Below, piece by piece: positions 27,510 through 53,706 of a stretch of 64,000 nucleotides of DNA. The first letter of the stretch is position 1, and every line of letters starts with the position of its first letter. The notes under the pieces are model-generated. The model saw only the letters and a list, made by a program, of their open reading frames with translations. It ran no database searches and had not been told where the DNA came from. This DNA comes from Escherichia phage FL38, in the sequence record PP400784; one strand, given 5' to 3'. The translations under genes were made by a program, and so were the position numbers.

Positions 27510-28901
27510 TCAAATATAGTCTACTCGATACCTCGCACGGGTAACACCCACATATAATAACTGCATTGCCAATTCAAAGTCAACATTGTCTGTACACATG
27601 CAAGGAGTATACAGGAACACGCGGTCTACGCTGATCCCTTGTGACTTATGAATGGTGCAAGCTGGTAATGCTTTTACATTCAAGAACATACGCTTCATCG
27701 TCCAGAAGGAATCCCAATCTGGTTTAAATTTTGGATTCTCTTTCTTCATTTCGCGATATTGTCCGGCGACCGTATTCAGATAGATAGAGAAAATGTTCTT
27801 CTGACGTTGTTCTGTCAGAATGTTGATTTCTACTAAATCTGGTTTATCTGTAGTGATTCCGACTGCATCTAAACCGACTTTCTGATTTAGGATTTCTTTG
27901 TCTTCGTCATCATCGACGCTTTCCACTTTCAGAGTATATCCTAAAACTGGTTGCGGATCTACCCCCGTGCAACGTAATGTAAATTCACGCGGGATGACCT
28001 CTTTAACTCGGATCATCTCACCATTGTTAAAAATAACATTGGGAATCTTCTTCCCGCGTTCATCTCGCAGATATTCGATCAATGGTTCCTGAGTAACCAG
28101 AATTTCATCTACAATCACTGGTTCATCGGTGTTATAAACGCGCTTACGTACAATTTCATTGAGTTTTTCGACGCTCTTGTTAGTGTAGGCCAGAATACGG
28201 TTTTCTAGAAGGTCTTCCGGCGTTTTAACGGTTTCGAAATAATGCTTCATAAACTCCGGCAGAGTTGAGCTATGGAATACACCCTCGTTACCGCACTGCT
28301 TTTCGAATACCCATTTACCATTACGGACAGCGGTCGCCACATCAATTATTGGAGCATTAGATCGTTTAATCTCTGTAAGTTCTACATTCTGAAACCTTTC
28401 ATCGGTGAAGAAAGGAGAGATCGACGTTGCACCGCTCGGATCAACTGGTCGTAACTGGTTCAGATCACCCACGGCAATAATAACAATTCGACCGTTGATA
28501 CTCTTCATGAGAATATCAAATAGTTTCTTATCGACCATACTCGCTTCATCAACAATGATGATCTGAACATCATCTAGCTTAGGAGTATCTTTTTGCTCAA
28601 ATACTTGAGTATCTTCATAGTTGGTCGGGTTTAGTCGCAGTAGTGCATGTAAAGTAAATGCTTGACGACCTACCGCTTTACTCAAAACTTTTTTAGCCTG
28701 GTGGGTAGGCGTTGCCAAAACCACACCAGTTACCCCACGACGGACCATTTCCTGAACAATGAATTTCATCATTGCGGTTTTACCAGTACCCGCCGCACCA
28801 CGGACAGTTGTATGCTTCTTTTGTTCAATACGTTTCATTAGAACATCAAAAGCATGTTTTTGCCCGTCTGTTAACATATCGAAAGTTAATACTCTGCTCA
28901 T
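27510..28901 (-). CDS. dda: Dda-like SF1B DNA helicase
   Basis: 463 aa; Walker A GAAGTGKT; VDEASMV Walker B; position after dexA as in T4. Confidence 0.85.
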   Translation of the reverse strand: MSRVLTFDMLTDGQKHAFDVLMKRIEQKKHTTVRGAAGTGKTAMMKFIVQEMVRRGVTGVVLATPTHQAKKVLSKAVGRQAFTLHALLRLNPTNYEDTQVFEQKDTPKLDDVQIIIVDEASMVDKKLFDILMKSINGRIVIIAVGDLNQLRPVDPSGATSISPFFTDERFQNVELTEIKRSNAPIIDVATAVRNGKWVFEKQCGNEGVFHSSTLPEFMKHYFETVKTPEDLLENRILAYTNKSVEKLNEIVRKRVYNTDEPVIVDEILVTQEPLIEYLRDERGKKIPNVIFNNGEMIRVKEVIPREFTLRCTGVDPQPVLGYTLKVESVDDDEDKEILNQKVGLDAVGITTDKPDLVEINILTEQRQKNIFSIYLNTVAGQYREMKKENPKFKPDWDSFWTMKRMFLNVKALPACTIHKSQGISVDRVFLYTPCMCTDNVDFELAMQLLYVGVTRARYRVDYI

Positions 28902-33793: not shown

Positions 33794-35206
33794 TTAGAAA
33801 GTCATGTTATTTGCTAGCTCGTCGAGTTTTTCTCGTTTCTCGGCTTGCTGTGCGCTTTGCGGTTTAACTTGTGCATTCTCCTGATCTGCGATCTGGTTTG
33901 GTACTTCATACCAACGCTGATTGCCTTTTTTCACACCAACGTTAAACCGTGAATAATAGTTCTTGTCACCGTAACGAGACTTGATCTGCTTCATGAGTTG
34001 GACGCCCATTTTAGCCAGGTCTTCGGTTTCGATAACACCCAACATAAAGTCGGCAGTAGCCGGAAGACCTGCTGATTCAGCGGTATCACTCATGTTAAGG
34101 TCGGAAGCATCCCAACCCGCGCGGGTAGTCTGTGCCGCAGTCCAACCAACAACATCCCACTTAACAAAAAATCCTCGCAGTTCTTCCGCAATCGCCTTAA
34201 CTAGTGTGTAACTATTTTCAGAGTATACACGCAAGCGAGACGATGCGCAAATCCCCAGATAGTCAACAATCACAACATCAGGTTTAAACTGTTTCTTGAG
34301 TCGCAATTCATTCATTAACGCCTCAAAGTGATTGGAGTTCGCGCCACCAGTCGGATACTGCTTGATCATCAATTTTCCAACCGGACGATCTCCGATCTTC
34401 TTATTCTTAACACGCTTCATGCGTGCGGAATATTCCGCAAAAGAAACATTACCATTATCCAATTCATCTAATGTAATGTCAAGCAAGTTTGCGTCGATAC
34501 GTTTTGCTACTACATGCTCCGCCATCTCCATTGAGATATACAATACATCATAACCACATTCCATATAATCCGCAGCAAGAGAACACAATCCAAGCGATTT
34601 ACCAACATTTACACCAGCAAGCAACACATTTAGCGTTTTTCTTTCCGCACCTCCTTTCGTGATTTTATTCAACATCGGCAGCTTAAACGGGATCTTATTC
34701 GCCTTAGTCTGATATAGCAAGAATCGTTTTTCAAAGTCATTAAACCAGTCATGACCTACATCAGAATCAAACGTAATGGATAGTGCTTCCTGCATGATCT
34801 CAGGAATAGCACCCTCACTCGGCAATTTCTTATTCTGTTTCTCTTTTGGTAGTTGTGCGTTCGCCTGAATCTCTAGCGCCCGTGACATTGCATTGTACAT
34901 AGCACGGTCACGAATAAATTTTTCGGTTTCCTTCATTAACCAATCAAGGTCTTCCGGTGTATTCTCCAGCGAATCGAGAAGAGTTTTAGCCCCTTCATAT
35001 GTTGTCTGATTGCCTCTCTCCTTGTCTAAAGCAATCTGTAATGCAGTTGGCGTAGGAATATTGGAATATTCGTCTACGTGCTTTTTAATCAGCTTATAAA
35101 TCAGTTTTTCTTCGTCTTCGGTGAAGTAGTCCGCTTTAAGGTGAGGCCATACATTCGTAAAGAATGCGCCATTGTAAATCAACTGTGAAAAGATAGTTTT
35201 AATCAT
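33794..35206 (-). CDS. 41: replicative DNA helicase (DnaB-like)
   Basis: 470 aa; Walker A GVNVGKS; T4 gp41 is 475 aa. Confidence 0.9.
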   Translation of the reverse strand: MIKTIFSQLIYNGAFFTNVWPHLKADYFTEDEEKLIYKLIKKHVDEYSNIPTPTALQIALDKERGNQTTYEGAKTLLDSLENTPEDLDWLMKETEKFIRDRAMYNAMSRALEIQANAQLPKEKQNKKLPSEGAIPEIMQEALSITFDSDVGHDWFNDFEKRFLLYQTKANKIPFKLPMLNKITKGGAERKTLNVLLAGVNVGKSLGLCSLAADYMECGYDVLYISMEMAEHVVAKRIDANLLDITLDELDNGNVSFAEYSARMKRVKNKKIGDRPVGKLMIKQYPTGGANSNHFEALMNELRLKKQFKPDVVIVDYLGICASSRLRVYSENSYTLVKAIAEELRGFFVKWDVVGWTAAQTTRAGWDASDLNMSDTAESAGLPATADFMLGVIETEDLAKMGVQLMKQIKSRYGDKNYYSRFNVGVKKGNQRWYEVPNQIADQENAQVKPQSAQQAEKREKLDELANNMTF

Positions 35207-47491: not shown

Positions 47492-47581
47492 AGTCTCTTC
47501 CTCTCTTCGTTTTCGATGCTCTCACTATATCACAGAAAAATAAAAAGGGAAACCCCTTTCAGAGTCTCCCTTATAAAGCCA

Positions 47582-47870: not shown

Positions 47871-48104
47871 TTATTTTACCTCTGGGATATAATCAATTAT
47901 TAAAGAAAATTCATCTTCTGATACATTATAGCTATGTGAGATTGTACCCGTAAAGACCTCAAGATCCGGTGATTTGATATTGCACGGATCGATAATCACC
48001 GGAACGCCGCAATCTCTCAAAAATAATTTGGCGAAATACGGCACAAGGTCAGTTTCAAACTCTGCTTCTTCCAGCAAACGGGAAATGTTAATTTTCAATC
48101 TCAT
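47871..48104 (-). CDS. hypothetical protein (77 aa)
   Basis: ORF. Confidence 0.45.
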
Positions 48105-48621
48105 AAAATTGGTCCAAGCTAGGCAATTCCTCGGTCAATACATCTTCAACCTTTGGCGCTTTCGGTTTATTGACCGATTCCTCGTAGTTGTTGATTTTAT
48201 CGTAAATGTCCTGTATGAATGCCTCATCAGCAATCTGGCACATATCAGCGTCGCGTTCGTCATATACATGATGCACAAAATATTTGTATTTTGCGGCTGT
48301 CGCTGTTCTCTCTTTTTTAATGCGCTGTACAAAAGCATTAAAGCACGCTTGCGTGATGTAAGCATGAGGATTTTTATACTTTGTCTCGTCAAAATTAATC
48401 AAACCCTTGACCGCCGCTTCGATTCCGTCGTCGATCATTTCTTCGCGCCACGTTTGACTATAACCAGAAAAGTTAAAACGACGTGATAGATTTTTAGAGA
48501 TTTGCATAATTGCTAGGCCGATTTGATCGCTCATTGGAACTTGCCGACCTTCTGCTGCAATTTGTTGTTTCCAACGGCAAATTTCTTCGTAAAGCTCTTT
48601 ATTGTTTACATAATCAGACAC
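48088..48621 (-). CDS. 55: late-transcription sigma factor
   Basis: 177 aa; [50 protein letters not shown] and FIQDIYDK match T4 gp55. Confidence 0.93.
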
Positions 48622-48661
48622 TTCGCACCCTCGCTATTATTTAGGAAATAACCCTTTCGGG

Positions 48662-50131
48662 CTATTCCCCATTACCATTATACTTTCTTTGCTTAGTTAT
48701 CCACACTCTAACCATCTCTACAGATTCGCCGTCAGACGGATCAAGAGTTTTTCCTTTTTTCTTCATGCGGTACTTAAATCCGTTAAATCTTGCATTCTCT
48801 TGCTCGTTAAAGTCGAACATCTTTTTAAATGATTTTCGCCCTTTACGTTCACCACATTCTAGCGGAATCATTCGATCTGTTATTACATTGGCATTAGGCA
48901 GAAACGTTTTTAGATAATCCACCAACGCCCAATCAGGAACATATAGATTAACATTCTCCTTGCTCTCGTTGTCTCTCAGGTTACAACGCAAACATAATTG
49001 AAATGCTGGTTCCAGATAATCAGACACATGACGCGCTTTCAAAAACTCGTTTGTCGGGAGATCACAACTATTAGCAAGACCTTTTAAAATATCAATCTCC
49101 CATCGTTGAGGGTTAAAGCTGAACATCACAGCAACATTTTTATGATGAATGTAAGAGTTAAGACCATAAGACCCGTAAGGTATCCGCTCACCAATACCAT
49201 TTGTACACGCTTCACGGTCCCGATTCACGGTATAAATGAAGTCATCGCCACATTCATTTTTAACCATATCAACAAGACGTTCAAAGGTATTGTTTGTTTC
49301 TGACTGGTGACGCGACCATCGTTCAGAGTCCGTCATAAGGATGATATTAACTCTATCTGTATTTTTATACTCTTTGAAATATAGTCTGGATTCTAGCGCA
49401 CTCGGAACAAAATCGCAATTTGCATAGTATCGTAGATACTTCCCACTATATGTATCAAAGAGATTTGCACATGCTATCGTAACCTTTTTAAAGTCTCCCC
49501 ACGTACCGTGTTTGTTATCGTTCAAGAAAACAATTTTCGACCCATTCTTCCGGTGTCCTTCGTTATGTTTTACCATAACGTTGATTTTCTTCTCTAATAA
49601 CGCCTCATAAAGCCCTCTAAGAGAAGAATCGATCATATCAGTACCATCCTTCGCACTTTCTATCTTTTCTTTGATAGCGGCCTTCTCAGAGTCTTTTAGA
49701 ACTAAGTTCTGTAGGCATTCCGATTCGTCGGCGATTGGTTCGCAATGCTTCGTGATAAGTTCAAGATTAGACTTAAACGGATACTCATTAAATTCAACCA
49801 GTTGAGGAACTTCATCAATGTAAAGAGCATAATCACCAAACATTTTTGAACGTTCCATATTAGATAACGCTGTATGTGTAATGAATATCACATCAGCACC
49901 ATCTTTAACTGATTGCATTATCGACGCTTGCACTGTCTTAAGGCTTCTTAGTCTTGTGCTATCAATCAAGACAGCACGACCGCCCATTCTTTTAAACTTA
50001 TTGTAAGATTGTTCACTTAAAACACGAGATGGCGAAGCAATAACCGCTTTTTCTTTTGTCTCTAGGACGTGGGAAAGTATAGCATCAGTTTTCCCCGCCG
50101 CTGGCAATGCGATTAATGTTTCAATCTTCAT
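48662..50131 (-). CDS. P-loop NTPase of unknown function (489 aa)
   Basis: Walker A IALPAAGKTD at residues 8-17; motif Ia-like VIASPSRVLSEQ; Walker B LYIDEVP; no T4 counterpart recognised. Confidence 0.5.
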   Translation of the reverse strand: MKIETLIALPAAGKTDAILSHVLETKEKAVIASPSRVLSEQSYNKFKRMGGRAVLIDSTRLRSLKTVQASIMQSVKDGADVIFITHTALSNMERSKMFGDYALYIDEVPQLVEFNEYPFKSNLELITKHCEPIADESECLQNLVLKDSEKAAIKEKIESAKDGTDMIDSSLRGLYEALLEKKINVMVKHNEGHRKNGSKIVFLNDNKHGTWGDFKKVTIACANLFDTYSGKYLRYYANCDFVPSALESRLYFKEYKNTDRVNIILMTDSERWSRHQSETNNTFERLVDMVKNECGDDFIYTVNRDREACTNGIGERIPYGSYGLNSYIHHKNVAVMFSFNPQRWEIDILKGLANSCDLPTNEFLKARHVSDYLEPAFQLCLRCNLRDNESKENVNLYVPDWALVDYLKTFLPNANVITDRMIPLECGERKGRKSFKKMFDFNEQENARFNGFKYRMKKKGKTLDPSDGESVEMVRVWITKQRKYNGNGE

Positions 50132-50436
50132 TAGAAACCCTTACGTCGTGCTTTCTGGCATTTCTTGATCATTTTATCAGAAATTTCGCGCTTAGGTGCA
50201 ATCTCTTTCACACCGAAAGCACTAATGCCAAATTCAGAGAGAATATATTCAACCAACAATTCACGCACACGCGCTTTACCGATATTCACGCCGTTATTTT
50301 TCAGATATGTCTGGCCTTCGACTTGCATCAGATCTAAATCTGCGTCGGTAATATTGATTTCTTCCATGCGCCCAAATCGAGAATAAACCATGTGTGCGAT
50401 TGCATTGTGTACTAACATAATATATTCCTCACTCAA
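50131..50436 (-). CDS. hypothetical protein (101 aa)
   Basis: ORF. Confidence 0.5.
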   Translation of the reverse strand: MSEEYIMLVHNAIAHMVYSRFGRMEEINITDADLDLMQVEGQTYLKNNGVNIGKARVRELLVEYILSEFGISAFGVKEIAPKREISDKMIKKCQKARRKGF

Positions 50437-50439
50437 GAA

Positions 50440-50598
50440 TTACTTAATGATACTTACTTTACCAGATCCATGACAATGAGCGCAACACCCATCACCACGC
50501 AATCCTGTTCCGTTACAGTGTTTACACTTCTTCAACGGTAAAGCCATTATAGCAAATAAAGCAATAATGAATACCGAAACTAAATTCTCAATAATCAT
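50440..50598 (-). CDS. putative membrane-anchored zinc-ribbon peptide (52 aa)
   Basis: Not in ORF track; N-terminal TM helix then CKHCNGTG...CCAHCHGSG; ATG inside the end of the upstream gene. Confidence 0.4.
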   Translation of the reverse strand: MIIENLVSVFIIALFAIMALPLKKCKHCNGTGLRGDGCCAHCHGSGKVSIIK

Positions 50599-50857
50599 AA
50601 ATCGCCCTCAGTTCTTTATAGCCTCCAATGTGCTCGTTGTCAATGAATATCTGGGGGTATACAAATCGGAGGCTCTTTGAGTTCATCCTCCCCGCCAGTT
50701 CTTCAATCATATCACGGTCGGGAATAATGTCAACCCCGACCTGCTTGAATACTGGTTTAAGTGTATACGGAATACCCAGATCATCCAGTAGCTTCATTGC
50801 ACTAATACAACCATAACAATGATAAGCCTCTTTCGGTATACCGTATATCTCGATCAT
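50588..50857 (-). CDS. glutaredoxin-like protein (NrdH-like)
   Basis: 89 aa; CYGC redox motif; C-terminal PQIFIDNEHIGGYKEL glutaredoxin signature. Confidence 0.6.
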   Translation of the reverse strand: MIEIYGIPKEAYHCYGCISAMKLLDDLGIPYTLKPVFKQVGVDIIPDRDMIEELAGRMNSKSLRFVYPQIFIDNEHIGGYKELRAIYDY

Positions 50858-51354
50858 TTCTCAGCCTTTAATCTTTCTAGTTCTTCTTCCAGTTCCTTGA
50901 TCCGTTGGTCACGTTCAAAGTCACGCTGCAACTTAGTGGCGAATACTCGTTTAAACTGATTGTAATCATCGATTTTAAACACTTCTTCTTCGCCATAGCG
51001 ACGCACAGAAACTTCGTAGTTATTGAAGAATTGTTGCATCATTGCTTCGGATGATAGCTCTGCTGATACCACTTTAAAATATTGATCTTCTGTAGGCGAA
51101 AACCAATTACAAGCATAAAGATAAACCTTTTCATTGTCTGGACACTGGTAAGCCTTACCATCGATTTCAATCACAGAAACATATTCAGGTATACTAGATG
51201 AATCAATAGCTAAGACTTTAAACGCACGGTCCCCGATAAACTCGGAGATCACACGATTCGCATCACTGGTTGCAAATGCTTTACGCGCTTGTTCGTTTTT
51301 CCACTGATAGGTCATGCCAACAACAAACATATTACCAACCTCGCTCTTTACCAA
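50854..51354 (-). CDS. repeat-domain family protein (1 domain + helical tail)
   Basis: Shares the ...FKVLAID...IEIDG...WF...DQYFKVV core and coiled-coil tail with neighbours. Confidence 0.55.
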   Translation of the reverse strand: MVKSEVGNMFVVGMTYQWKNEQARKAFATSDANRVISEFIGDRAFKVLAIDSSSIPEYVSVIEIDGKAYQCPDNEKVYLYACNWFSPTEDQYFKVVSAELSSEAMMQQFFNNYEVSVRRYGEEEVFKIDDYNQFKRVFATKLQRDFERDQRIKELEEELERLKAEK

Positions 51355-52156
51355 TCAAAAATTCAACTTCACGACGTTTAATGTCTTCTTGAAGGTCTTT
51401 AATCTTCTGGCGATCTTGCATGATTTCATCCATCTTGTCAAGTGCCGCAATGAAATCATCGAAACGTTCAAAGGTTTTACCTTCATTTGCTTCGCCAAAT
51501 TTAACCATTGTCAGGCCGTAACGACTACTAAACAGACGTTTCAACTGTCCAACGATCTTAGAATCAGTGGTTATAACTTCCAATTCTTCTACTTCACGAA
51601 AGAATTTTCTATCAGAATCAATAAACCAGCTAGTTCCTTTATGGTCTCTATCTTCGGTTGCGCTCATTAGAGTATGGTCTTTACCATCAATTTCAATTAC
51701 ATCAATTTGCCCACATGGACGAACATTTTTAACAGTAAAAGGTCTATAATTTATTGCTCGTGCAATAACATAATTAAGATTAGATACGTTTTCAGCATAA
51801 TGACAGAAGTCGGTCATAGCATTCGCATCTTTCCAAGTATAAGTTTTACCAACTTCCCATTTCTGGGGAACTTCTTCAACTTCACGAAAGAATTTTCGAT
51901 CGAATGGACTAAAGAAATATGTTGCAGTCCAAATGTCTTTTCCTGTAGCAGTTTTCGCCGTATGATAAACACCGTCTAGCTCTATTGCATCAATCCAACC
52001 GTTACCATCGATCTCGATGATGGTAAATGGCTTGTCACCAATAGCTGCACTAATATCGCTGTTAAGTGGAGAAAGAACACCTTCTCCGTTAGTAATAAAC
52101 TCAGTTTTAGCGTTTTCATCTTTCCAGGTGTAGGTTTTACCAATTTCCCATTTCAT
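51332..52156 (-). CDS. repeat-domain family protein (2 tandem domains + helical tail)
   Basis: MKWEIGKTYTWKD...DRKFFREVEE occurs twice, then tail. Confidence 0.6.
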   Translation of the reverse strand: MKWEIGKTYTWKDENAKTEFITNGEGVLSPLNSDISAAIGDKPFTIIEIDGNGWIDAIELDGVYHTAKTATGKDIWTATYFFSPFDRKFFREVEEVPQKWEVGKTYTWKDANAMTDFCHYAENVSNLNYVIARAINYRPFTVKNVRPCGQIDVIEIDGKDHTLMSATEDRDHKGTSWFIDSDRKFFREVEELEVITTDSKIVGQLKRLFSSRYGLTMVKFGEANEGKTFERFDDFIAALDKMDEIMQDRQKIKDLQEDIKRREVEFLIGKERGW

Positions 52157-52168
52157 AATATATTCCCC

Positions 52169-52669
52169 TTAACCGATTTTATCAAGTTCGTTTAATGCTT
52201 TCTCTGCTTCCTGTATAGCTTGCACCCTTTCCGGCATTTTGTCAAGAAAATCTTTCAACTCTTCAAAACTGGAGATATGACGCAATGCGTTAGCACCGAT
52301 AGCCGCATGTGATTTGCATTCAAAGCGGATTTTATAATTATCCATCGCCAATTTGAGAAGGTCTATTAGATCATATTCATGACCAGGCAATAAAACTTCT
52401 TTGAAGCACGCTCGGTCGCCATCGGAAAACCATATATTATCACCAACATCGATAGAACTAATATAATCCCCTTCGTGATTATAGATTGAACGTACATTAC
52501 CCCAACGGTCTACCGTAGCGACAGTAAATGGTTTATCTAGATATGTAAACACACCATCAATATTAGGTTTTTGTTCGTAACGCCAACAATCACGCAAAAT
52601 GCGCTTTTCGTCCTCACCAACCAACTTATATGTCTTCCCTTCTTCCCATTTCATAATATCATCTCTCAT
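52169..52669 (-). CDS. repeat-domain family protein (1 domain + helical tail)
   Basis: MKWEEGKTY...KPFTVATVD...DRACFKEV, tail with LKDFLDKMP. Confidence 0.6.
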   Translation of the reverse strand: MRDDIMKWEEGKTYKLVGEDEKRILRDCWRYEQKPNIDGVFTYLDKPFTVATVDRWGNVRSIYNHEGDYISSIDVGDNIWFSDGDRACFKEVLLPGHEYDLIDLLKLAMDNYKIRFECKSHAAIGANALRHISSFEELKDFLDKMPERVQAIQEAEKALNELDKIG

Positions 52670-53195
52670 TTTTGATACGTGATTCTAATTGGATCATACG
52701 GTCGCGCGTTTGTTTGTATTCTCGGATAGCACCGATCCGGCTAGGCATACCATCCAGTACGCTCTTAATACCTTCTAGGGTAGTGATTTTAGCAATGCTA
52801 TTATGCAACCCCATCTTATCGATCAACTGAATGTCGTAGGCTTCCATAAGCAGACCCAGACGTTCTAAAGTTAGGTCTTCTTCTTTTTCTTCAGAATCTG
52901 GAATCTTAGGTTCAATAATAACTTCGGTAAAGAAACGACGCTCACCCGACCAAAACCACACACCGGAACAGCCAATAGGGGATTCTTTTAACGTCATAGA
53001 GTCGAAATCACTACCGATAATAGTAATTTCTCTAACATCACCATCATCGTCAATGTCTTCTACCCTAAACGGGCGACCAGCCAACAAGTCAACAATACAT
53101 CTGTTAATAGACGACGAAAATTTAGTCAGTTCGGCTTTCGACGCTTCGCATTCAATCTTGTAAGTTTTACCAACTTCCCATTCCATAATAATCAC
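52659..53195 (-). CDS. repeat-domain family protein (1 domain + helical tail)
   Basis: MEWEVGKTY...RPFRVEDID...ERRFFTEV, tail with LDGMP. Confidence 0.6.
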   Translation of the reverse strand: MIIMEWEVGKTYKIECEASKAELTKFSSSINRCIVDLLAGRPFRVEDIDDDGDVREITIIGSDFDSMTLKESPIGCSGVWFWSGERRFFTEVIIEPKIPDSEEKEEDLTLERLGLLMEAYDIQLIDKMGLHNSIAKITTLEGIKSVLDGMPSRIGAIREYKQTRDRMIQLESRIKNER

Positions 53196-53196
53196 C

Positions 53197-53706
53197 TCAA
53201 ATAATTTTCACTGGAATACTATTAACAATCTTGTATTGTACTTGATTGTCAGATCCCCGCCACGGCTTCTTCGTTGGCATATCTTTAATATAACGCCCAT
53301 CGATGAACATGTCAACTGATTCTACAATTTTTCTTTGCTCATCATTCAATTGGTCAAGGGTATAACCGGACCATAGCCAAATATCTTTATTTGGCATCCA
53401 TGATTTTACTTCATCGATGATCCGCTGTACACCCTTTAAATTGCGTTTATACAGTGGATCGCCACCTAAGAATGTTAGCCCCTGAATAAAATCAGGTCTA
53501 AGCAGATCCAGAATCAATCCCATTGTATCATCGGTGAATGGTTCCCCGTTCTTAGGATTGAGTAGGCTAGCATTAAAGCAACCATCACATGCATGTGAAC
53601 ATCCGGTAACGTAAAGGGAGACTCTCACTCCCTCACCGTTAACCATATCACAATCTTTAATATCGGCATAGCGTAGTTTGCCGTATGTATCAGAACTCAT
53701 ATTCAA
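53197..53706 (-). CDS. nrdG: anaerobic ribonucleotide reductase activating protein (radical SAM)
   Basis: 169 aa; GCSHACDGC cysteine cluster; adjacent to nrdD. Confidence 0.8.
   Translation of the reverse strand: MNMSSDTYGKLRYADIKDCDMVNGEGVRVSLYVTGCSHACDGCFNASLLNPKNGEPFTDDTMGLILDLLRPDFIQGLTFLGGDPLYKRNLKGVQRIIDEVKSWMPNKDIWLWSGYTLDQLNDEQRKIVESVDMFIDGRYIKDMPTKKPWRGSDNQVQYKIVNSIPVKII

Follow-up and report, generated by a model that had tools for sequence, protein, structure and literature searches.

A conserved helicase-like SF2 ATPase with a predicted XPD/DinG-like fold, encoded directly upstream of gene 55 in several T4-type genera

We analysed a window of 64,000 nucleotides from Escherichia phage FL38 (PP400784), in which the region of a 489-aa gene is 99–99.9% identical to the Krischvirus genomes kaaroe, RB49, Phi1 and JSE. 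The strand of this gene had been left unstated in an earlier note on this DNA; we found a 489-codon open reading frame which runs from ATG to TAG on the minus strand and fills its interval exactly (Table 1), and the plus-strand frame over the same positions is full of stops. We estimate the probability of a 489-codon open frame arising by chance at ~1e−14 (~39% GC, with stops making up ~6.5% of random codons), so a frame of this length is unlikely to be a chance one. The gene is the orthologue of RB49p044 (NP_891615.1), which is annotated as “hypothetical protein” and whose locus is 99% identical; one record, W115, names the product “putative helicase”. As the GC content of the gene is indistinguishable from that of neighbouring genes, recent horizontal acquisition was rejected.

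Table 1 Features of the helicase locus and of related loci (window positions unless a locus is named; residues are those of the 489-aa protein).
Feature	Coordinates	Strand	Basis
CDS, 489 aa, SF2 helicase-like ATPase	48662..50131	minus	ORF and translation
Motif I / Walker A, residues 8-15 ALPAAGKT, family AxPxxGKT	50087..50110	minus	74-sequence alignment
Motif Ia, residues 31-41 IASPSRVLSEQ	50009..50041	minus	Family consensus IAxP(T/S)xxLxxQ
Motif Ib-like, residues 84-89 ITHTAL, family ITHxAL	49865..49882	minus	T85 84%, H86 81%
Motif II / Walker B, residues 103-109 LYIDEVP	49805..49825	minus	D106 and E107 100%, P109 91%
Insertion of ~105 residues between motifs II and III, residues 110-215	49487..49804	minus	Alignment and model
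Motif III-like, residues 218-223 TIACAN, family TxLxAN	49463..49480	minus	A222 89%, N223 64%
Second RecA-like domain (predicted), ~residues 255-420	48872..49369	minus	AlphaFold2 model
Motif V, residues 322-327 YGLNSY, family HGLNxY	49151..49168	minus	G323 and N325 100%
Motif VI, residues 374-386 EPAFQLCLRCNLR	48974..49012	minus	Q378, R382, R386 100% (74 sequences, ~20% identity)
VPD block, family-specific, residues 398-400	48932..48940	minus	V398 95%, D400 96%
Basic helical C-terminal tail, residues 432-489	48665..48838	minus	Helices 443-458 and 468-486 (model)
Translation initiation region: Shine-Dalgarno AAGGG 50142-50138, 6-nt spacer, TAATG	50129..50142	minus	Sequence reading
55.2 homologue, 101 aa, upstream, translationally coupled	50131..50436	minus	tblastn and PHROG 1475
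Gene 55, late sigma factor, downstream	48088..48621	minus	PHROG 234, E 4e−63; synteny
Homologues in bacterial/metagenomic loci L009, L011, L014, L015, L016/L017, L018/L019	e.g. L014:10001-11641, L018:8001-9431		

In the direction of transcription, the order of genes on the minus strand is nrdG (53197-53706), four paralogous small genes, nrdH (50588-50857), a CxxC ORF, a 101-aa ORF, the helicase gene, gene 55, homologues of a-gt.5 and a-gt.4, and genes 47 and 46. The gene had previously been placed between gene 55 and the glutaredoxin gene, which is correct apart from the two small ORFs which intervene before nrdH. The 101-aa ORF is a homologue of T4 ORF 55.2 (tblastn: 41.7% identity, E = 2e−11), and in T4 its product acts as an inhibitor of E. 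coli topoisomerase I (PMC4396842). The 55.2 stop codon overlaps the helicase ATG by one base (50131), an arrangement which was also found in RB16 and in Shigella phage vB_SdyM_006. Gene 55 begins 40 nt past the helicase stop codon and is a syntenic anchor across genera. A hairpin (CCC-GAAA-GGG, then TTATTT; 48652-48661, minus strand) lies directly after the helicase stop and before the GAGGG Shine-Dalgarno sequence and GTG start codon of gene 55; it may serve in RNA stability or processing.

Near the helicase gene we found no late-promoter TATAAATA on the same strand and no MotA box, and a late or MotA-dependent middle promoter upstream was therefore rejected; sigma-70-like matches upstream were at chance level. 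The equivalent T4 region carries annotated early promoters. Taken together, these results make it likely that the gene is expressed before late transcription along with the surrounding genes of DNA and nucleotide metabolism.

We aligned the protein to 28 T4-type homologues (31–74% identity), in which conserved blocks run along the whole length of the protein; being conserved over this range in T4-type phages of many genera, it is a real gene under selection. A second, broader alignment contained 74 short-form sequences which were mostly 17–28% identical to the window protein, including eleven T4-type sequences (32–49%). The sole invariant residues across this alignment were K14, D106, E107, G323, N325, Q378, R382 and R386. 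In motif I (AAGKT, residues 11-15) K14 was conserved in 100% of the sequences, G13 in 99% and T/S15 in 100%, and in motif Ia, which lines up with the PTxxL of DDX42, PriA and Mfd, L38 was conserved in 96%, P34 in 59% and T/S35 in 95%. The motif II box is DEVP (106-109), neither DEAD nor DEAH. The insertion which follows is present in all relatives (occupancy 0.82–1.0) with few conserved columns. Motif VI has the family pattern ExxYQxxxR(T/C)xIR (374-386) around the core QxxxRxxxR (378-386); Q378, R382 and R386 of this core would act as gamma-phosphate sensor and arginine fingers. Further conserved blocks were WS(K/R) at 272-274, FxYxxN at 298-303 and NPxPW at 340-344. No cysteine was conserved family-wide; C130 and C380 were invariant only within the T4-type clade, in which W477 of the C-terminal tail was also invariant. 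Read from the sequence, the window protein thus carries a complete SF2 motif set.

The earlier note had described a helicase-like P-loop NTPase from three peptides, IALPAAGKTD, VIASPSRVLSEQ and LYIDEVP. All of these are present in the translation, the first at residues 7-16 rather than at 8-17, the others at 30-41 and 103-109, and the description agrees with both the SF2 motif set and the helicase structural neighbours reported below. It had also named a lack of conserved Walker residues among homologues as grounds for abandoning this reading; these residues are invariant in the homologues. Two further statements did not hold. The remaining ~370 residues, which had been described as without a recognisable motif, contain the motif III-like, V, NPxPW, VI and VPD blocks, all conserved family-wide, and a predicted second RecA domain; they are therefore the rest of a helicase, and the 489-aa protein is a complete helicase rather than a lone P-loop domain. 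A kinase-like NTPase, which had been offered as an alternative, was rejected as we found no kinase family in Pfam or NCBIfam and no kinase fold, the structural neighbours all being helicases.

Domain libraries recognise only the N-terminal domain of this family, which is why most of its records are labelled “hypothetical”. Pfam matches only the N-terminal ~130 residues of the window protein (DEAD, RecA1 only, 27.3 bits against a cut-off of 26), and ResIII matches 26 of the 74 relatives. Helicase_C was detected neither in the window protein nor among the Pfam families listed for the 74 relatives, and DEAD_2 and Helicase_C_2 were absent from the window protein and from the best 25 of 36 families for these relatives. 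Searches of NCBIfam, PADLOC and PDB sequences with the window protein gave nothing beyond weak sub-threshold P-loop matches in PADLOC, and a known defence or anti-defence component was rejected on this basis. Over its full length the protein belongs to PHROG 2467 (E = 2.9e−175), a phage family with no assigned function; relatives of ~800 aa match both PHROG 2467 and PHROG 31024, which are uncharacterised bins rather than functional families. In PDB profile searches, whole-family profiles matched only RecA1 of DDX42, PriA, Mfd and reverse gyrase (E ~ 1e−6), XPD and DinG were absent from the matches, and the profile of the C-terminal half (RecA2) matched no solved helicase. The RecA1 similarity to generic SF2 translocases spans motifs I, Ia, Ib and II (E ~ 1e−6 to 1e−4). 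A literature search found nothing on PHROG 2467, on RB49 together with DinG, or on phage DinG-like helicases of this family.

We used AlphaFold2 with the 28-sequence alignment to model the protein (mean pLDDT 88.1, pTM 0.76, five models concordant). Together with fold comparison, the model predicts a tandem RecA-like fold, in which the second RecA domain aligns to HD2 of XPD/DinG and to the C-terminal domains of DEAD-box proteins and holds Q378 and the motif VI arginines. The motif III-like TIACAN lies on strand E216-221, residues 42-102 (the ~60 residues between motifs Ia and II) form ordinary RecA elements, and the insertion at 110-215 is predicted to consist of mixed strands and a helical hairpin (H147-162 and H166-179). 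The closest folds were those of XPD/DinG, E. coli DinG included, and CasDinG and Hna were also among the neighbours; alignments to XPD/DinG were ~70–120 residues longer than those to other two-domain SF2 proteins. In a viral structure library the top matches were uncharacterised proteins of Atu_ph07, phiRSL1, Fnu1, Motura and H101, followed by phage proteins labelled DinG/Rad3-related. In the model, then, the predicted fold is closest to XPD/DinG.

Members of the XPD/DinG family have an Arch domain inserted between motifs II and III, and XPD has a 4Fe-4S cluster domain, with four conserved cysteines, between motifs Ia and II. The insertion of the window protein occupies the Arch-domain position. 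However, there is no Fe-S insertion, not even a vestigial one, and the four cysteines have no family-wide counterpart; it should be noted that some accepted members (CasDinG/Csf4 and Staphylococcus aureus DinG) also lack an Fe-S cluster. The boxes differ, with DEVP where DEAH would stand, HGLN in place of the XPD-type motif V and a motif VI spacing of Q+4R+8R, the protein is smaller (489 aa vs 550–900 aa), and no sequence homology to XPD/DinG was detected beyond the P-loop. We conclude that, going by predicted fold and topology, the window protein operates in the manner of XPD/DinG-type helicases, although membership of the XPD/DinG family cannot be demonstrated. Given the absence of a relation at sequence level and the DEVP box, we regard its family as a separate, uncharacterised SF2 family. 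Generic SF2 translocases (PriA, Mfd, type I HsdR, the helicase domain of reverse gyrase) are more distant, as only their first domain aligns, their accessory domains are all missing from the window protein and their structural matches are weaker than those of XPD/DinG. T4 UvsW, an SF2 helicase acting in branch migration and on R-loops and D-loops, is likewise phage-encoded, monomeric, of similar size and from the same virus family, and an overlap in substrates is plausible. A diverged UvsW was nevertheless rejected, since the two proteins show no homology (BLASTP E = 0.24) and the same phages carry a separate uvsW.

Using tblastn we found the helicase in 243 of 50,697 phage records. Approximately 58 of these are Krischvirus at ≥ 98% identity, and the others, at < 60%, belong to other T4-type genera: Tulanevirus and other Aeromonas phages, Bragavirus, Roskildevirus, phages of Serratia, Proteus and Morganella, and Pseudotevenvirus including RB16, RB43 and relatives from Klebsiella, Enterobacter, Citrobacter and Cronobacter. 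There were also a few distant matches in jumbo phages, such as Atu_ph07. Tequatrovirus (T4) was absent among these matches, in agreement with the earlier note, which could name no T4 counterpart at this position; between 55.2 and 55 T4 has only the unrelated 87-aa ORF 55.1, which was rejected as a helicase remnant (BLASTP E = 1.6, hhalign probability 0.1%). In Krischvirus, Tulanevirus, Bragavirus and Roskildevirus gene 55 comes directly after the helicase, and in RB16 the helicase follows 55.2, gene 55 having been relocated elsewhere. A scan of genome contigs gave just three contigs, all from T4-type phages and binned with MAGs or assemblies. In Aeromonas phages the gene Aes508 gp050 (L003:3429-4004) overlaps the helicase start by 4 nt. 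It is annotated “DprA-like DNA recombination-mediator protein” and has no Pfam match at E ≤ 0.01, so this label may be unreliable; a partnership of the helicase with this protein was dropped for the same reason.

Other helicases are present alongside this one. The window encodes Dda (27510-28901) and gp41 (33794-35206), and tblastn found UvsW, in keeping with its core status (PMC2993671, Table 3), as a separate gene in Krischvirus Phi1 and also in RB43-like and Aeromonas phages. Rather than replacing one of them, the protein is thus an additional, fourth helicase.

To look beyond T4-type phages we ran a profile search over 1.84 billion cluster representatives, which found 1,323 relatives (50%-identity clusters), 757 of them at E ≤ 1e−10. 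Some are ~480–570 aa long and others ~750–900 aa, with homology in the first ~450 residues. The longer ones, of the PHROG 31024 type (L010:9533-12040, L011:1977-4397, L013:3908-6196), carry an extra C-terminal region of ~350 residues without a Pfam domain, and include a protein of the Agrobacterium jumbo phage Atu_ph07. In a rough neighbour-joining tree without support values the T4-type proteins formed one clade, the nearest relatives of which were ~500-aa proteins from uncultured phages and marine gammaproteobacteria. We then examined seven loci of bacterial or metagenomic origin, which amount to six distinct elements because L016 and L017 are one and the same. The homologue was always part of a small integrative element, beside a tyrosine or serine integrase and/or a resolvase. 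The recurrent layout is an integrase, small ORFs, the helicase with its C-terminal HTH and a resolvase, and then variable defence cargo (DUF4062, a CAP12/TIR protein, type I R-M HsdM/HsdS, DUF2971, Pycsar PycC and PycTM). Examples of such elements lie in Thalassotalea fonticola (CP136600, ~1.155–1.177 Mb) and, with Pycsar, in CP128558 (~3.674–3.691 Mb). We found no description of this type of island. Such an arrangement points to a possible part in the replication or maintenance of mobile elements.

We consider it probable that the window protein is an active SF2 DNA helicase or translocase of XPD/DinG-like architecture which serves in phage DNA metabolism, and hold any one specific pathway to be much less so. 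Its two RecA-like domains would bind and hydrolyse ATP at their interface, with K14 and T15 in the P-loop, D106 and E107 for catalysis and Q378, R382 and R386 contributed by domain 2. Hydrolysis-driven domain closure would move the enzyme along a nucleic-acid strand which motifs Ia, Ib, III and V hold, and the ~105-residue domain between motifs II and III would give it an XPD/Rad3/DinG (SF2B) topology with no iron-sulphur cluster. By analogy with the closest folds it would translocate on ssDNA, probably 5′→3′ as XPD/DinG do, and would unwind or remodel branched phage DNA intermediates such as forks, D-loops and R-loops, as an accessory helicase beside gp41, Dda and UvsW. The protein would be made before late transcription within the co-directional DNA-metabolism block nrdD/G/H, 55.2, 55, 47 and 46, its synthesis translationally coupled to that of gp55.2. 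From analogy and context we infer DNA rather than RNA as the substrate, as well as the polarity, the specific intermediates and the timing of expression.

Among specific roles, a Rep-like replication-initiation helicase is a tentative and rather unlikely proposal, both for the ancestral function, the opening of an origin in a phage or integrative element, and for T4-type phages, where the protein would help to start or restart replication at specific sites, in functional analogy to herpesvirus UL9 and other origin-binding SF2 helicases. The integrase and/or resolvase neighbours in six distinct elements are consistent with such a role, as are the non-coding gaps of 400–1000 nt which often flank the island genes, the classic HTH (G[VI]S..T[VI].RW) in which the island relatives end, the versions of ~800 aa with an extra C-terminal domain which head an early-looking operon in phage contigs, and a weak Pfam Herpes_ori_bp match in one family member (E = 0.0014). 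However, the T4-type clade has neither flanking non-coding DNA nor an HTH, and its tail was rejected as a degenerate form of the island HTH (hhalign probability 0.3%). A search for iteron arrays or an origin beside the island homologues gave only two-copy repeats at chance level, and UL9-like models were missing from the top viral fold matches. T4-type phages are also established to initiate replication from R-loops and recombination, with no dedicated initiator (PMC4396842, introduction).

A broader version of this idea, about which we are equally doubtful, is that the large undescribed helicase family (1,323 clusters at 50% identity) is the core replication or maintenance gene of integrase-helicase-resolvase islands, which are widespread and bear anti-phage defence cargo, and of diverse phages, and that the HTH-less T4-type copy has been domesticated as a fourth helicase which, coupled to gp55.2, controls R-loop or origin opening. 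If true, there would be a route of replication initiation or restart in T4-type phages which T4 itself lacks.

It is unlikely, though suggested by gene order, that the protein is instead an R-loop or protein-displacement motor for transcription-replication conflicts which is functionally linked to gp55.2. Inhibition of topoisomerase I by gp55.2 would then lead to hypernegative supercoiling and R-loops, which the DinG-like helicase would create, use or clear. The TAATG overlap of the 55.2 stop and helicase start, seen here, in RB16 and in Bragavirus, points to such a link, the upstream ORF is a true homologue of the T4 inhibitor gene, and E. coli DinG, which is among the closest folds, unwinds R-loops and D-loops. 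The pairing is not obligatory, however, as 55.2 occurs in 1,092 phage records vs 243 for the helicase and so works without it; Aes508 and Cronus have other small genes between the two or in place of 55.2, and adjacency in T4-type genomes predicts function weakly.

A counter-defence motor, which shields phage DNA from host immunity or competes with it, or a part of a defence system in the islands, is a still more improbable role. In the islands the relatives have Pycsar, TIR, DUF4062 and type I R-M genes as neighbours, among T4-type phages the gene is an accessory one, and CasDinG and Hna are structural neighbours. Against this, no PADLOC defence model was found beyond the weak P-loop matches, and in the islands it is the defence genes that vary, as cargo, whereas the helicase stays with the core of integrase and resolvase. 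The synteny of the gene across genera at 35–40% identity is also unlike that of typical fast-turnover anti-defence genes. A DEAD-box-like RNA helicase acting on phage or host transcripts is highly improbable, as the Q motif is missing (just 7 residues precede the P-loop), the boxes are DEVP rather than DEAD, TxxxAN in place of SAT and QxxxRxxxR in place of HRIGRxGR, Helicase_C goes undetected and fold matches over the whole protein point to DNA helicases.

For helicases of replication and recombination the reference system is T4, with gp41, Dda and UvsW, and a conserved fourth helicase of predicted XPD/DinG architecture in large branches of its virus family could reveal a DNA transaction which T4 lacks or carries out in another way. 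With the motifs and fold described here the family can be annotated, and its recurrence as a core gene of defence-carrying bacterial islands suggests a broader role in mobile elements.

Several other features of this region were observed. The CxxC ORF (50440-50598, minus strand) encodes 52 aa, in which a hydrophobic helix at the N-terminus comes before a zinc-finger motif of the DnaJ type (CKHCNGTG...CAHCHGSG), and W115 labels its homologue a putative membrane protein. The four paralogues between nrdH and nrdG form a tandem array (50854-53195, minus strand; 166, 274, 166 and 178 aa) in which each gene starts with a “(K)WExGKTY” module, duplicated internally in the 274-aa member; they match PHROG 5347, which has no assigned function, and give weak goF-like matches (E = 6.5e−6). 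An HNH homing-endonuclease gene separates gene 47 from a-gt.4 in the RB49 reference (L001:2938-3492), where the window has just ~90 nt (47492-47581), a presence/absence polymorphism of a mobile endonuclease.
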